IMG/VR virus record: IMGVR_UViG_2778261344_000014
DNA length: 4,749 bases
Direction: 5' to 3' (one strand)
From: a virus
Lineage: Duplodnaviria; Heunggongvirae; Uroviricota; Caudoviricetes
Shown piece after piece: positions 28 through 4,328 of this stretch. The position numbers and the translations under genes were made by a program. Below the pieces are notes generated by a model, which saw nothing but the letters and a program-made list of their open reading frames with translations, was not told the DNA's origin and made no database searches. How positions within the stretch are numbered: the first letter of the stretch is position 1; every line of letters begins with the position of its first letter.

Positions 28-222
28 TTACCTCTTTCTCAGGGAGTTTAGTCTCCAGGATTTCCGGGGCGGTTCAATAAATCGAGATTTATTTTCATGG
101 TGATTCTGCTGTATACGGATTGCTTCTGTTCCGTAAAGGCGGGCGAGTAACTCAGTTGTGATTACAGGAATCTGGTTATAAGTGACAGGGGAAAGGTTTT
201 TGACAGTAACTTGAGTCGTCAT
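28..222 (-). CDS. Small 64-aa protein with an ORF6N/antirepressor-N-like motif (hypothetical)
   Basis: Complete ORF with ATG at 222-220 and SD-like AGAGGG (229-234, minus strand) about 6 nt upstream. The segment YNQIPVITTELLARLYGTEAIRIQQNHHENKSRF matches the ORF6N/Ant N-terminal pattern (..V..LD.DLA.LYGV.T..LNQAV.RN..RF) from memory. The ORF is shorter than a typical ORF6N domain and may be truncated. Confidence 0.5.
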   Translation of the reverse strand: MTTQVTVKNLSPVTYNQIPVITTELLARLYGTEAIRIQQNHHENKSRFIEPPRKSWRLNSLRKR

Positions 223-273: not shown

Positions 274-383
274 TCATCAGGTGGCGAGACGTACAGGGTT
301 GAGACTACCGGATCAACCAACCGGCCAGCCTTTCGGCTGCCCCATACGCCTCACCATAATTCAGATGTGCGTGCGCATACGAC

Positions 384-408
384 AATAAAAAACACGCTCG
401 CGGCGTGT
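384..408 (-). terminator. Rho-independent terminator on the minus strand
   Basis: Minus-strand RNA reads ACACGC-cgcga-GCGUGU (6-bp stem, 5-nt loop; 408-392) followed by UUUUUAUU (391-384). It sits in a ~350-bp stretch with no minus-strand ORF, between the leftward operon (ending 574) and the 28..222 gene. Confidence 0.5.
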
Positions 409-573
409 GTCTGTCGCGGTTGAATATCCGGGGTCTCAATCCCGACGGTCAACTCGACCGTGCGGTGAATATAGCCCCGGATTAGTAATTACGTCAACCC
501 CAGCGGCAAATCGAATAAACCACCAGCGCTACCGCCATTGCAACTCCTGCCGTTACGAATGCCTCAGGCCAGG

Positions 574-759
574 TCATCGTAAACTATCCTCAGCGCCAAT
601 CAGTCCGTTTCGCTTCAGGCAGTCCATCGCTTTATACGGTAATTTGGCTGACAGGCGAAAATCACCCTGCAGCATCAGGCTTATTCCCTTATCCCGGGCT
701 TTCGCTCTGACCGCTGCCTCGCTACGACCAATCAGACTGCCGATACTTTCGACAGTCAT
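574..759 (-). CDS. Small 61-aa hypothetical protein with a possible HTH motif
   Basis: Internal ATG at 759-757 of the 574..909 ORF was chosen because the longer form overlaps the upstream gene by 90 nt. The segment SIGSLIGRSEAAVRAKARDKGIS fits a generic helix-turn-helix pattern. The SD is weak (GGGAA), so this call is uncertain. Confidence 0.35.
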   Translation of the reverse strand: MTVESIGSLIGRSEAAVRAKARDKGISLMLQGDFRLSAKLPYKAMDCLKRNGLIGAEDSLR

Positions 760-818
760 CGTTCCCGCGCACTGCCGGAGTATCAGAATTTCAGCCCGGC
801 ACCACGTCTTCCACCCAC

Positions 819-1580
819 TCACCGCTGCTGTTCTCTGGTGGCGGTAATATCCCGGAGAATATCCCGGCACTTGTTCAGCTCCCGCAGCGCGGCGCAGACT
901 CGCTCCCACTTCTGAACCTGACCTTTTGCCCGGCGCAGCTCGCGGTTAGCCACATGCAGCGATGGTAAAATCAGACCATCCGGATGCTTTCTGGTGAACG
1001 ACGGCTGTGACTGCACTGTGACCGCCACACTTTCCGTTTTTATTTCTTCCTGTGTTTCCGCTTCCCGGACTGGTAACGCAACACATGCTGGCTGAGGAAA
1101 GGCCTTACCATCATTTTCCGTTACCAGCGCGGCTTTCGGCTCTGCTGGTAAATTATCGCCCGGCATGCAGTAACGAAATCTACCGTTCTGATTAACGCGT
1201 GCCAGCCGCCCCGTTGCGGTTACCACCGCCAGCGTGGAAGCAACCTTGCGAGTACTGACACTGAACTTACCCGCTATTTCTTCACAGGTTTTAGCCCCCT
1301 CCTGAGCGATAAACTCAATCATCATGTTAGCGCTAACTTTTGGAGCGACCTCTTCGGTCAGCATATCCTGTGTTTCAGATTTTACTGGCCGCTCTTCGGT
1401 TACCCGGGATTCACCTTCGACAGCCAGAAACCAGGTGTGACCCGTTTTATCAACAACGCCATTTTTTTTGAGCTCCCACAGTTCGTTGAGAACTTCTTCA
1501 CGGCTGATATCAATTCGTGCCGCCAGTTCAACAGAATTGGCTTTACCCATCGCTTTCAGTGCATGCAATACGGTTTCCAT
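819..1580 (-). CDS. 253-aa protein with two tandem FaeA/PapI-like winged-helix domains, an acidic linker and a basic C-terminal helix (function unknown)
   Basis: ATG at 1580-1578 is preceded by a strong SD GGAGGAAG (1593-1586, minus strand) and lies 34 nt after the P-like stop. Residues 1-50 (METVLHALKAMGKANSVELAARIDISREEVLNELWELKKNGVV) and ~100-145 (MMIEFIAQEGAKTCEEIAGKFSVSTRKVASTLAVVTATGRLARV) both fit the FaeA/PapI winged-helix pattern. The ORF-track start at 1646 has no SD and overlaps the P-like gene. Confidence 0.7.
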   Translation of the reverse strand: METVLHALKAMGKANSVELAARIDISREEVLNELWELKKNGVVDKTGHTWFLAVEGESRVTEERPVKSETQDMLTEEVAPKVSANMMIEFIAQEGAKTCEEIAGKFSVSTRKVASTLAVVTATGRLARVNQNGRFRYCMPGDNLPAEPKAALVTENDGKAFPQPACVALPVREAETQEEIKTESVAVTVQSQPSFTRKHPDGLILPSLHVANRELRRAKGQVQKWERVCAALRELNKCRDILRDITATREQQR

Positions 1581-1614: not shown

Positions 1615-2280
1615 TCAGACAAAACCAGCCGCTTTCCGGCGTTCATACTCCTGTTTCAGCAACTCAATTGGCGTTGGTCCCAACGGGCGTTTTGGTGCCG
1701 CCAGTTGTCGCCGTACTGGCGGAACGCTCAGGCCGTTACTAACATGCTTTGCCCATTTCGTCAGCTGCCGTTCTGCAAGCCGTTTTAATTCCCCTTCGGT
1801 CATCTGGCGTTCAATCCCCTTTGAACGCATCTCGAGGCAAATGTGATACAGCACAGGCTGAGGCCACGGATATTTGTCGCTTCCGTTATATCGCCAGGAC
1901 TCATTACGCCAGCGGCGATACTCCTCCATCACAGCATCCACCGTCAGGCCAAATGGATTGGCCCCGCTTTCCGAAATCAGCGCCACAAACTCAGCCAGGT
2001 CCGGAGGCCATGTTTCACCCGCCCGGCAGCGGTCCATGCACTGGCGGCAGACCTGCCGGATTTGCTGCTCAGTCATCGCGCCAATCTGTGCAATCCAGAG
2101 CTTCGAAGGTGCGGCCCCGTTCTTCTGGGTCCAGCGGTTCGAATAAACCTCCCCCATGAGTTCCCACAGCTTCCAGGCCGTTTCCGTCGCTGATAAATCC
2201 GTTTTCACGTTCCCACTGCTCACGTGCTGCCCGAATTTCCTGAACTGCCCGTGATGCGGTGCCACCTGGTGCTGCTGCAT
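1615..2280 (-). CDS. Replication protein P-like DnaB helicase loader
   Basis: The 221-aa ORF has ATG at 2280-2278 with a strong SD AAGGGGG (2293-2287, minus strand). Its C-terminal half (DLAEFVALISE..., YPWPQPVLY, ELKRLAERQL, PPVRRQL, LKQEYERRKAAGFV) parallels lambda P as recalled (FVAWCREE..., YPWKSNAHY, AELRRKAADEL, PEPVKQLP, KIAEIKAKFGL). Alternative starts are at 2157 and at 2076, the latter in an ATGACTGA overlap with the initiator stop. Confidence 0.6.
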   Translation of the reverse strand: MQQHQVAPHHGQFRKFGQHVSSGNVKTDLSATETAWKLWELMGEVYSNRWTQKNGAAPSKLWIAQIGAMTEQQIRQVCRQCMDRCRAGETWPPDLAEFVALISESGANPFGLTVDAVMEEYRRWRNESWRYNGSDKYPWPQPVLYHICLEMRSKGIERQMTEGELKRLAERQLTKWAKHVSNGLSVPPVRRQLAAPKRPLGPTPIELLKQEYERRKAAGFV

Positions 2281-3109
2281 GGTTTACCCCCTTGCTGACT
2301 GGTTTAACCTGCGCCCTGACGTGATTTACGTGACGGGCGAATTTCTGCTCCCACTGAATCTGCGTAAACACTTTCCCCTCCGCTGCCCAGTAGTCCCGGA
2401 ATGCGGTAAGTTCAGCAGGTGTAAATTCTGTCTCCGGCAAAGCCATCCCCCACAACGCAGCCCGTCGTCGAAAATCCCGTGACGGATACCAGCTATCGGT
2501 CATCGGAAATTTTCCGATGGGTTCGCTCAGGCCATCCAGGAATACATGGGGGGCTGCCTGTAACGACAAAACTTCCTGCTCACTGATCGGAGCACTCTCG
2601 CGTGCGTTATGTGTGGGGTTTAGATCTTTGGGTTCCTTTGGGTTCCGTGATCCGTTTTTGGGTGTCTTTGATGGAAAATTTGGGTGTCTTTGGTTATTTT
2701 CCATGCAACAAAGAGTTCCGTTTTTGGGGCTCTTTTGTGCTGAAACATAACCGTTTTCGGTACTGTTTTTATTAACAGCACCAATTTTACCCACCTTTAA
2801 AGACACCCGTTTTTGGGTGTATTCAGGCTCGGCAACACTTTCTTCTACACCGATAAGTCGGTACACCACAATTTGCTTTGTTCTGCCTTTTCTCTCACCG
2901 GTATCAACAATTAACCCAATCTCCATCAGGTGTCGTAAGCTGTCCTGCACAGTCTTTTTGTTCAGTTCCGTTACTTCTGCCAGTGCAGATACAGACGGGT
3001 ATGCACACAAATCGGCACCGCACATATCAGCAAGCCAGGTCAATACAGACTTACTGGATGAACTGCCGGTTTTCACCTTTTTAGCCCATCGTAGTGCATC
3101 GATACTCAT
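2069..3109 (-). CDS. Phage replication initiator (lambda O analogue): N-terminal HTH domain plus C-terminal DnaT-like domain
   Basis: ATG at 3109-3107 with SD AGGGG (3119-3115, minus strand) gives 346 aa. The N-terminus MSIDALRWAKKVKTGSSSSKSVLTWLADM...LNKKTVQDSLRHLMEIGLI is HTH_36-like. The C-terminal region WYPSRDF...ELTAFRDYWAAEGKVFTQIQWEQKFARHV resembles the DnaT-type DNA-binding domain of phage initiators. The central linker is low-complexity and encodes the iterons. Gene order is initiator then helicase loader. Confidence 0.75.
   Translation of the reverse strand: MSIDALRWAKKVKTGSSSSKSVLTWLADMCGADLCAYPSVSALAEVTELNKKTVQDSLRHLMEIGLIVDTGERKGRTKQIVVYRLIGVEESVAEPEYTQKRVSLKVGKIGAVNKNSTENGYVSAQKSPKNGTLCCMENNQRHPNFPSKTPKNGSRNPKEPKDLNPTHNARESAPISEQEVLSLQAAPHVFLDGLSEPIGKFPMTDSWYPSRDFRRRAALWGMALPETEFTPAELTAFRDYWAAEGKVFTQIQWEQKFARHVNHVRAQVKPVSKGVNHAAAPGGTASRAVQEIRAAREQWERENGFISDGNGLEAVGTHGGGLFEPLDPEERGRTFEALDCTDWRDD
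2626..2824. repeat. Iteron array, candidate origin of replication inside the initiator gene
   Basis: A ~19-bp element CCGTTTTTGGGTGTCTTTG recurs at 2652-2670, 2679-2693, 2718-2736 and 2806-2820. The last copy is preceded by its inverted half AAAGACACCC (2799-2808), giving dyad symmetry. There is a degenerate copy at 2751-2770 and a tandem TTTGGGTTCC x2 at 2627-2646. The array falls in initiator codons ~96-161, as lambda ori does in O. Confidence 0.6.
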
Positions 3110-3632
3110 ACGAACCCCTGGCAGATATTTGTTTATCTGCAAAGTAATATTGATACTGCTGACGATACGCATGCTTGAAAGCAATAGCTTTTTCTATAAG
3201 CTCGTCAGTCTCACGTTCCACAACAGATGGATCCGCAAAAAGCAGTCCGGACTCCACCACATCGCCATATTCTTTGTTTAACCCGGCGATCATGTACGTG
3301 ATGCTTTTTCCGTCACTAATTTCACGATACAACCTGAAATCATTAATCCGGATAGCCTCCATAATTGCAGGCACTAGCGCCGTGAACTTTTCACGCTTAT
3401 CCCTGGTGTCGATAGCCTTCCAGCGTTCGAATATCTTCACTCGATTAACGCCAAGCGCTCGCTGATCAACCGCGCCACCTTCATCTGTGACACGCTGAAC
3501 ATCGATGTTCGGGCGCTCTTTCAAAACCCAGAATGCTTCAGTGATTAATATCGTCGCCTGCTCCTGTGTCATTCCTGGTCGACATATCCAGGCATCCAGA
3601 GCCTCACGAGCCTGTTCAGGAGTGATTTTCAT
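3081..3632 (-). CDS. 183-aa hypothetical protein in the cII/YdaT position, possibly a YdaT-like regulator
   Basis: ATG at 3632-3630 overlaps the last codons of the Cro-like gene by 17 nt, and the stop overlaps the initiator start by 29 nt, so the three genes are translationally coupled. The segment KIFERWKAIDTRDKREKFTALVPAIMEAI resembles the YdaT-family motif as I recall it; that recall is not verified. Confidence 0.65.
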   Translation of the reverse strand: MKITPEQAREALDAWICRPGMTQEQATILITEAFWVLKERPNIDVQRVTDEGGAVDQRALGVNRVKIFERWKAIDTRDKREKFTALVPAIMEAIRINDFRLYREISDGKSITYMIAGLNKEYGDVVESGLLFADPSVVERETDELIEKAIAFKHAYRQQYQYYFADKQISARGSYEYRCTTMG

Positions 3633-3843
3633 TGTTCAACCGCCCCGCCCGCTTTGCCTTACGATATTCGTCATAAACTTTGGGGTCGTACTGAAGTTCC
3701 CCGCCGGATGCCTCTTGCAGGCGCATCGCGCGACCTTCAGGAACTAGCTCTTGCCATTGAGAAACAGCAGATGGGTCAACGCCAGCAGCTTTCGCTACTT
3801 TGGCTTTCGTACCGTAAAAATTAATTACGTCTGATTTAAACAT
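3616..3843 (-). CDS. dicC: Cro-like HTH regulator of the DicC/YdaS family
   Basis: ATG at 3843-3841 with SD GGAGGTG (3853-3847, minus strand) gives 75 aa; E. coli DicC is 76 aa. The motif AKAAGVDPSAVSQWQELVPEGRAMRLQEASGGEL is YdaS/Cro-like. It is transcribed divergently from the dicA-like repressor. The ORF-track start at 3870 would leave no room for promoters. Confidence 0.7.
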   Translation of the reverse strand: MFKSDVINFYGTKAKVAKAAGVDPSAVSQWQELVPEGRAMRLQEASGGELQYDPKVYDEYRKAKRAGRLNNENHS

Positions 3844-3920
3844 CGCACCTCCAATATTGAGTTTTCTCAATGCTAATCACTCAAGGAATCTCAAGTCAAG
3901 GGTTATTAAGATATCTAAAT
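3844..3920. promoter_or_regulatory. Divergent promoter/operator region between the dicC-like and dicA-like genes
   Basis: A perfect palindrome TTGAGttttCTCAA (3857-3870) overlaps the predicted leftward promoter (-35 TTGACT at 3899-3894, 18-bp spacer, -10 TAGCAT at 3875-3870, minus strand). Direct repeats CTCAAG occur at 3880-3885 and 3890-3895, and TCAAGG at 3896-3901. The rightward promoter is not confidently placed. Confidence 0.6.
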
Positions 3921-4328
3921 ATGAACGAGAAAACTTTAGGTCAACGCATTAGAGAAAGACGTAAGCAGGTAGGCTTAAGTCAAAACGGTTTAAGCAAAGC
4001 TGCTGGCGTATCTGGCTCATCAATTTCATTATGGGAAAGTGACCATACAGCCCCGCGCGGGCAAAATTTGCATCGCCTCGCCGAGGTATTGCAATGTTCA
4101 CCAACCTGGATACTGTTTGGCGACGAGGACAAAACACCAGCTCCCCCTGTTTCACTCGATAGTACCCTAGACTTATCGGAAGATGAGTTAGAGATGCTGC
4201 GTTTGTATCGCGCACTTCCTAAATCAGAGCAACAAGCACAACTCAGCGAACTCCGCGCCCGCGTTGAGAATTTTAATCGCCTGTTCACCGAGCTATTAGA
4301 GGCTCGCAAACGCAACAAGCATCAATAA
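3921..4328 (+). CDS. dicA: DicA-like HTH (XRE family) prophage repressor, the cI analogue
   Basis: Starting at the internal ATG 3921 gives 135 aa, the length of E. coli DicA. The N-terminal HTH is LGQRIRERRKQVGLSQNGLSKAAGVSGSSISLWE. The segment LQCSPTWILFGDEDK and the C-terminal ...RARVENFNRLFTELLEARKRNKHQ match my recollection of DicA. It is divergent from a Cro-like gene and followed by a ydfA-like gene. No SD precedes 3921, so the mRNA may be leaderless. Confidence 0.85.
   Translation: MNEKTLGQRIRERRKQVGLSQNGLSKAAGVSGSSISLWESDHTAPRGQNLHRLAEVLQCSPTWILFGDEDKTPAPPVSLDSTLDLSEDELEMLRLYRALPKSEQQAQLSELRARVENFNRLFTELLEARKRNKHQ

Follow-up and report, generated by a model that had tools for sequence, protein, structure and literature searches.

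A 183-amino-acid (aa) open reading frame (ORF) lies at positions 3081-3632, minus strand, of a 4,749-nucleotide stretch of Caudoviricetes DNA (IMG/VR virus record IMGVR_UViG_2778261344_000014; the whole stretch is called the window below), between a DicC-type Cro-like gene and a replication initiator gene. Judged by its sequence, it encodes a long-form member of the YdaT family, which probably serves as the cII-equivalent, lysogeny-promoting activator of a lambdoid prophage of the DicA/DicC type, acting via a box over its own start codon and a promoter that reads in the reverse direction. The new observations are an invariant box over the start codon and, at a fixed spacing from it, a hexamer on the opposite strand. 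The basic picture of the locus is unchanged by them, as the gene is an ordinary, already annotated and expected component of a lambdoid immunity region; it is experimentally unstudied.

Family membership and DNA-binding domain

In a Pfam scan of the 183-aa protein with E values up to 0.1, PF06254 (YdaT_toxin) was the only match (26.1 bits vs a cut-off of 21, residues 59-131) and no Phage_CII match was obtained, while PHROGs assigned the protein to phrog_163, 'CII-like transcriptional activator' (1.6e-40, residues 1-170). Neither NCBIfam nor PADLOC holds a model matching it. A single-sequence search of the PDB gave borderline matches only (E ~0.1), with two YdaT structures on top, and a profile built from 33 subfamily members matched the YdaT structures 8bt1 (3.6e-6) and 3c4r (8.1e-6). 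As well, hhalign aligned residues 1-106, and these only, with residues 1-90 of the K-12 Rac YdaT (probability 97.4%, E = 1.4e-11). The original prediction had guessed the family correctly, and the protein is longer than Rac YdaT, as had been said (183 aa vs 140 aa).

A comparison with the structure of YdaT had also been proposed, and it was made on an AlphaFold2 (AF2) model with a mean predicted local distance difference test score (pLDDT) of 82.6. In this model, residues 1-106 fold as a POU-like helix-turn-helix (HTH) domain with predicted helices at residues 5-16, 23-35, 57-73 (the recognition helix), 77-97 and 99-106. The loop between the second and third helices (alpha2-alpha3) has 21 residues, so that the five-helix POU-like HTH with a long loop, which is typical of YdaT, is found here; in YdaT this loop is unusually long, with 9-23 residues (PMC9986795). 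Residues 1-106 thus share sequence homology with the POU-like domain of YdaT and resemble it in predicted structure.

R70 and W71 of the recognition helix align with the DNA-contacting pair R57 and W58 of Rac YdaT and are invariant in the 33 subfamily sequences. According to a double mutant, H56 and R57 of Rac YdaT are required for DNA binding, and W58 is needed for the fold (PMC11879457). The position of Rac H56 is occupied by E69 in the window protein and by Q in most subfamily members, a replacement that would fit the changed half-site described below.

A conserved box over the start codon

In total, 160 loci were collected and their junctions were aligned, which gave 19 junction types and 17 upstream-context clusters. 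A first scan of viral contigs had returned near-identical E. coli copies only; the diverged loci were obtained by scanning again, this time with a profile of diverged members. The motif TGAACA-N6-ATCA, which overlaps the start codon, is invariant in 17/17 upstream-context clusters. Where the start codon stands one codon later, the spacing within the motif is unchanged (TGAACA-accatg-ATCA vs TGAACA-atgaaa-ATCA), and since this spacing is fixed though the ATG moves by 3 nt, it is the DNA motif that is constrained rather than the N-terminal peptide. Many members possess a perfect TGAACA-N4-TGATCA; the window reads TGAACA-ATGA-AAATCA at 3623-3638, where the motif has its sole exact match within the stretch. 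The footprinted Rac box, ATGATT-CATGAA-AATCAA, holds its own ATG within the spacer (PMC11879457), and the two boxes share one register, in which positions 2-4 of the spacer are the ATG.

When inverted and direct repeats near the junction were searched for generically (seed 6), nothing useful was obtained: the box is too imperfect in the window and was recognised only by comparison with diverged loci. A scan of the window for further boxes returned chance-level matches only, apart from one intragenic palindrome. This perfect 14-bp palindrome, GAACATCGATGTTC, spans codons 41-45 of the ORF at a distance of 127 bp from the box, with which it has the GAACA half-site in common. It is kept in 37/39 distinct E. 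coli-type alleles, with variation in the spacer only, and, by our own rough estimate, a match this good to TGAACA-N4-TGTTCA would be expected by chance about 0.01 times per window. The palindrome is absent from the diverged subfamily members and confined to closely related E. coli-type genes, and therefore it is weak evidence for an operator; an auxiliary operator is a possible function.

Another candidate, the inverted repeat CCTGG-N9-CCAGG at 3574-3592, which a Citrobacter homolog also has at these codons, was rejected as an operator, because it comes from conserved Ala-Trp and Pro-Gly codons and is absent in another locus (L010). It is probably a side effect of the conserved residues.

A hexamer on the opposite strand and a predicted reverse promoter

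On the opposite strand, TANNNT is found 21 or 22 nt from the box in 18/19 junctions, which represent 16 sequence-independent groups (60% identity or less between groups), the background of TANNNT being 0.8% per position. In the window the hexamer is TACGAT, the predicted -10 element of a P_RE-like promoter. The same geometry of box and hexamer is present in six short-form YdaT loci with a TGATT-N6-AATCA core, namely Rac of K-12 and a CP-933P-like phage (both TATGAT), two Klebsiella phages (TAGCAT and TATCAT), Pectobacterium phage ZF40 (TACGCT) and a Stenotrophomonas phage (TAAGCT).

A hexamer at -12 to -7 puts the 16-bp box at about -50 to -35, with its centre at -41.5 to -42.5, and no -35 hexamer is present in the predicted reverse promoter. 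Such a layout would be that of an activator-dependent promoter of class-II type. Transcription is predicted to start near 3672 on the plus strand and to read antisense through dicC into the dicA-like gene, and no terminator-like sites were found between 3672 and 3921.

Proposed mechanism and alternatives

According to the proposed mechanism, the 183-aa protein would oligomerise through a C-terminal helical hairpin and bind the box, from where, near -42, it would activate the promoter without a -35 element. The resulting transcript would be antisense to dicC and enter the dicA-like repressor gene; repressor would rise, Cro would fall, and the phage would be driven to enter or maintain lysogeny, much as lambda cII acts at P_RE. 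An occupied box might, in addition, impede rightward transcription towards the replication genes.

Several points weigh against this mechanism, which as a whole is built on sequence conservation and analogy. The right half-box of the window is degenerate (AAATCA), scoring 10/12 vs 12/12 in many relatives. The reverse promoter was missed by the generic promoter scan, as is expected of a promoter without a -35 element, and the prediction is without independent support. The activated promoter published for Rac, PracR4, is said to lie about 190 bp from the box, not 21 nt (PMC11879457). At the position of Rac H56, which along with R57 proved necessary for binding, the window protein has Glu and most subfamily members have Gln, and the half-site is TGAAC vs TGATT, so that the specificity is only predicted. 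Finally, the C-terminal half has no sequence similarity to alpha6 of YdaT, and the hhalign alignment ends at residue 106.

Among the alternatives, the one that survives best is that the protein is a pure repressor or roadblock at the box, limiting rightward transcription of the replication genes or its own synthesis and activating no reverse promoter. The box does overlap the start of the gene itself, in the path of the rightward transcript, published papers in places call YdaT and CII 'repressors', and Rac YdaT also binds operators overlapping the ydaS promoter (PMC11879457). We consider this alternative rather unlikely, as it leaves unexplained why 16 independent contexts keep a TANNNT on the opposite strand, always 21-22 nt away, and both characterised homologs activate a leftward promoter.

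It was also considered that TGAACA-N6-ATCA acts at the RNA level, for example in translation initiation or coupling of this gene, and that the DNA targets of the protein lie elsewhere. This would suit an element placed between a Shine-Dalgarno-like G-run and codon 3-4, where initiation signals are found, and in all junctions the start overlaps the stop of the Cro-like gene. Yet the motif keeps its internal spacing even where the ATG is displaced by one codon, the motif is palindromic (and perfectly so, as TGAACA-N4-TGATCA, in many members), its register equals that of the DNase-footprinted protein-binding site of Rac, and the opposite-strand hexamer has no rationale at the RNA level. An RNA-level role is therefore improbable.

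The family names in Pfam and RefSeq ('toxin YdaT') and two small overlapping genes resembling a toxin-antitoxin operon could suggest a type II system, in which the 183-aa protein is the toxin and the DicC-like protein the antitoxin; as well, over-expressed Rac YdaT is toxic (PMC5700377; PMC11879457). Against this, the predicted fold is a DNA-binding HTH domain followed by helices, without a toxin-like domain, PADLOC gave no match, and the upstream partner comes from at least four unrelated families, unlike a cognate antitoxin. Moreover, the CP-933P homolog showed no toxicity and the toxin-antitoxin idea was rejected experimentally (PMC8630535; PMC9986795), and the toxicity of Rac YdaT is explained by transcriptional activation of rcsA (PMC11879457). 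We regard a toxin as very unlikely. It is equally hard to credit that the gene has lost its function and is decaying as a passenger within a cryptic prophage. In favour of this, many database copies are truncated or fused, of the 96 residues of K-12 YdfX only 1-93 correspond to the protein, and the Shigella copy is broken. Against it, the window copy is full length, the variation among alleles is concentrated at third codon positions, and full-length copies are known from phage records and from over 2100 complete genomes of E. coli.

Activation of a reverse promoter from the box, as in the proposed mechanism, would bear on a common group of prophages. Those of the DicA/DicC type are among the commonest in E. 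coli, and some of them reside in Shiga-toxin-producing strains. Work is under way on how the Cro-like and CI-like regulators of the group affect host genes, but the switch has a third regulator, which has been passed over since K-12 has no more of it than the truncated YdfX. As a cII analogue, the intact gene, with its predicted operator and predicted promoter, opens the question of how these prophages establish or keep lysogeny, and the conserved spacing between box and hexamer bears on how activators of the YdaT type contact RNA polymerase.

C-terminal half and variable tail

The original prediction had suspected an added domain in the C-terminal ~80 residues, which it described as aromatic-rich. 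One part of this stands, namely that residues 107-161 form a predicted hairpin conserved in the subfamily; the aromatic-rich residues 162-183 are instead a low-confidence, disordered tail that is swapped along with the replication module. In the AF2 model, the hairpin consists of a helix at residues 111-130, a conserved L-x-G/A-x-P turn (around L130) and a long helix from residue 135, which is one helix more than in YdaT. It is presumed to be an oligomerisation module. The long-form subfamily (160-165 aa, 37-45% identity) is present in Citrobacter, Salmonella, Raoultella, Enterobacter and metagenomes, and its conservation runs through ...AYRQQYQ, that is, to residue 161.

When residues 100-165 (66 residues) were used as a query against 1.84 billion representatives, only the protein's own family was found, with no other domain context, bar one repetitive protein. 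The latter, P0128, is a 3299-aa protein of which 27 repeated stretches match these residues with 46% identity, and this may be a chance match to a repetitive protein.

The tail, YYFADKQISARGSYEYRCTTMG, has pLDDT values below 50 for residues 169-183 and holds the ribosome-binding site and start codon of the initiator gene; the phage matches end at residue 161, just before it. Its sequence and length go with the type of the initiator. The initiator beginning MSIDALRWAKK is accompanied by a tail of 22 aa and an overlap of 29 nt, that beginning MSLLFAERPLV by a tail of 12 aa and an overlap of 20 nt, and four other initiator types by a tail of 4 aa and gaps of 26-49 nt. Since tail and overlap size vary with the initiator type, the aromatic-rich end is read-through into the leader of the replication module, and both the last 22 residues and the 29-nt initiator overlap result incidentally from the mosaic junction to this one replication module.

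Overlaps and modular junctions

At its 5' end the ORF shares 17 nt with the Cro-like gene, which ends at 3616. At its 3' end it shares 29 nt with the initiator gene, whose ATG (MSIDALRW...) stands at 3109, after AGGGG. Both overlaps had been predicted at these lengths, and the boundaries given by the Prokaryotic Genome Annotation Pipeline (PGAP) are the same. An overlap with the Cro-like stop, of 4-17 nt, is present in 19/19 junction types, while an overlap at the 3' end occurs with two initiator types only. The claim of coupling on both sides is accordingly retained for the 5' end, as a feature of the family, and not for the 3' end. Upstream of the ORF start, a G-rich Shine-Dalgarno-like run, CGGGCGGGGCGG, lies inside the 3' end of the Cro-like gene, and in the anchored alignment G is found at columns -17 and -14 in 15/17 contexts.

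The place of the gene between a Cro-like gene and an initiator on the same strand, described earlier as the cII/YdaT slot, is conserved in all 19 junction types. At least four unrelated Cro-like families stand upstream (DicC/P22-Cro type, XRE type, YdaS type and a fourth type) and at least six initiator types downstream, the slot being kept throughout; it is also seen in Citrobacter, Salmonella-type, metagenome and other loci with unrelated neighbouring genes. Sequence similarity among the junctions ends about 13 nt before the start.

Short-form (141-aa) YdaT genes joined to a DicC-type Cro with the same 17-nt overlap were also encountered, in phage 640R1 (L173) and Klebsiella phage ST405-OXA48phi1.2 (L174), locus 589-605. 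As the DicC-type Cro is thus found with short-form YdaT, Cro and YdaT modules recombine just upstream of the box.

Coding status, distribution and prior annotation

The ORF is intact and begins with ATG. Among 39 distinct E. coli-type alleles, variable sites at codon positions 1, 2 and 3 number 23, 10 and 78 of 161, respectively, and this concentration at position 3 indicates a real gene under purifying selection. The DNA is present in 2528/5426 complete E. coli genomes, about half. Phage records carrying the gene include HannyBb and PhiR42_1, both with an isolation host in the record, as well as mEp460_ev081.

The gene had been called uncharacterized in the original prediction, a label that does not hold if taken to mean unannotated. 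RefSeq names the product 'toxin YdaT family protein', PHROGs places it among the CII-like activators, and the phage annotations read cII in PhiR42_1 and CII-like activator in HannyBb. Moreover, YdfX of the K-12 Qin prophage (b1568, 96 aa), which is 97% identical over its first 93 residues, has already been named the 'Qin prophage YdaT homolog' by Wons et al. 2025 (PMC11879457). A study of DicC listed ydfX as a gene of unknown function. The ydfX-dicC overlap is 17 nt, as in the window, and neither the remainder of the gene nor the replication genes are present at the YdfX locus (NC_000913.3 Qin, 4347-4637 of L011, minus strand). K-12 YdfX is a truncated remnant of the 183-aa gene.

Locus and gene neighbourhood

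The window carries the immunity and replication genes of a lambdoid region. Those of the minus strand are, in order, the DicC-type Cro gene, the 183-aa ORF, the initiator gene, and then a lambda-P-like loader gene and a DUF1627 gene; a DicA-type repressor gene and a DUF1391 gene diverge on the plus strand (Table 1). The PGAP annotation of identical DNA in NZ_CP037943 has exactly the same ORF boundaries. The gene dicC is the upstream partner of the 183-aa gene in what appears to be one operon, and the two are predicted to be transcribed together.

Table 1. Coordinates of the genes, protein regions and sequence elements discussed, with the evidence for each
Feature	Position	Strand	Evidence
183-aa long-form YdaT-family (putative cII-analogue) gene	3081..3632, incl. 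stop codon	-	ORF list; PGAP CDS WP_000705363.1; PF06254; PHROG 163; codon-position pattern
Residues 1-106, POU-like helix-turn-helix DNA-binding domain	3315..3632	-	Homology and predicted structure
Residues 107-161, predicted helical hairpin, presumed oligomerisation module	3150..3314	-	Predicted secondary structure and subfamily conservation
Residues 162-183, variable tail YYFADKQISARGSYEYRCTTMG, leader of replication module	3084..3149	-	pLDDT; co-variation with initiator type
Candidate YdaT-box TGAACA-ATGAAA-ATCA, overlapping the ORF ATG (3632..3630)	3623..3638	-	Conservation; Rac register
G-rich Shine-Dalgarno-like run CGGGCGGGGCGG, upstream of ORF start, inside Cro-like 3' end	3640..3651	-	Anchored alignment
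TACGAT, predicted -10 of reverse P_RE-like promoter, 21 nt from box	3660..3665	+	Conserved spacing
Perfect 14-bp palindrome GAACATCGATGTTC, inside ORF, codons 41-45	3497..3510	.	Repeat and box scans
DicC-type Cro-like gene	3616..3843	-	NCBIfam DicC 5.6e-50; Pfam P22_Cro 6e-17; PGAP
DicA-type repressor gene	3921..4328	+	NCBIfam DicA 1.5e-71; PGAP boundaries
Replication initiator gene, N-terminal winged HTH and DnaT-like domain	2069..3109	-	Pfam, PHROGs, PGAP

A palindrome, ATTGAGTTTTCTCAAT, is present at 3856-3871 in the dicA-dicC intergenic region and adjoins the sole sigma-70-like match of the generic promoter scan (TTGACT-18-TAGCAT, minus strand, 3870-3899). Because it fits the palindromic TTNG...CNAA motif reported in the DicC study, it is a likely DicA/DicC operator at the dicC promoter.

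Iteron-like direct repeats are found within the initiator gene at 2627-2824, with TTTGGGTGTCTTTG starting at 2627, 2657 and 2679 and TCCGTTTTTGGGTGTCTTT at 2651, 2717 and 2806. As they sit between the part of the gene for the HTH and the part for the DnaT-like domain, they are probably the replication origin, as in lambda O.

Two Rfam matches at gathering level, the C4 antisense RNA RF01695 (69.4 bits, 277-361, minus strand) and isrK RF01394 (51.2 bits, 387-461, minus strand), lie just upstream of an ORF6N-domain gene (ORF 28-222, minus strand) that is cut by the window start, a layout that we take to resemble the small-RNA-controlled antirepressor modules of P1/P7 and Gifsy-type prophages. 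On the identical segment, PGAP marks a pseudogene, 'DNA-binding protein, incomplete', at 643-822 (minus strand), which overlaps the ORF at 574-909 (minus strand); the latter has 111 aa and gave no Pfam match.

Comparison with known systems

Similar to lambda cII, the 183-aa gene occupies the slot after cro, would be an activator made from the rightward early transcript, has its candidate site overlapping the 5' end of its own gene, and would serve a promoter that reads antisense through cro into the repressor gene. Unlike it, the lambda CII protein has 97 aa and no detectable sequence homology to the 183-aa protein. The lambda P_RE, as read from NC_001416, has TTGC-N6-TTGC in the first cII codons, 13 nt from AAGTAT and centred at about -32.5. 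The lambda site is thus a direct repeat straddling the -35 region, whereas an inverted repeat near -42, 21-22 nt from the hexamer, is found here.

The CII proteins of mEp237, HK639 and HK225 (179-181 aa, annotated cII) are likewise long YdaT-type proteins in the cII slot. Against mEp237 CII, hhalign gave a probability of 93% and E = 2.9e-7 over residues 5-137, which include the first C-terminal helix and the turn. These proteins differ by an N-terminal extension of about 25 residues and another last helix. No TGAWY-N6-RWTCA box was found around the cII start codons of mEp237 and HK639, and therefore the box rule is not valid for every YdaT-like cII.

The closest comparison is with the short-form proteins Rac YdaT (b1358) and CP-933P YdaT (8bt1; related 3c4r). 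YdaT of CP-933P is a tetrameric POU-like DNA binder that recognises TTGATT-N6-AATCAA (PMC9986795) and activates P_RE933P, located between ydaS and ydaT (PMC8630535), while in Rac the box is required for the 29-fold activation of a reverse promoter serving racR (PMC11879457). The Pfam family, the POU-like HTH with its long loop, the R-W pair, the slot after a Cro-like gene and before replication genes, and the TANNNT 21-22 nt from the box on the other strand are common to both and to the 183-aa gene; Rac also shares the inverted-repeat box, 6-N6-6, over the ATG. On the other hand, the identity of the DNA-binding domains is only about 25-30%, and the short forms have 140-141 aa vs 183 aa here, with a single tetramerising alpha6 (an antiparallel four-helix bundle) vs two predicted helices. 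The half-site is TGATT vs TGAAC, His56 stands vs Glu or Gln in the long-form subfamily, and the partners are YdaS/RacR or PaaR2 vs DicC/DicA. YdfX, with 96 aa, is without everything that follows the DNA-binding domain.

In K-12 Rac (NC_000913.3, positions 3652-3657 and 3679-3694 of locus L012), TATGAT (genome positions about 1420651-1420656) lies exactly 21 nt beyond the footprinted box core on the opposite strand, and a box-proximal Rac promoter may have been overlooked in the published model.

A wider and more tentative reading, which we hold to be possible but somewhat doubtful, is that the box, 21-22 nt and TANNNT make up one promoter type for the whole YdaT family, a class-II-like P_RE centred near -42, of which the long form would be a specificity variant with another oligomerisation module. 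This geometry would be unlike that of lambda CII and, for Rac, unlike the published promoter at about 190 bp. The variant would be distinguished by the half-site TGAAC and by Glu or Gln in place of His, with oligomerisation by the helical hairpin, and in the E. coli lineage the long form could bridge the box and the palindrome 127 bp away.

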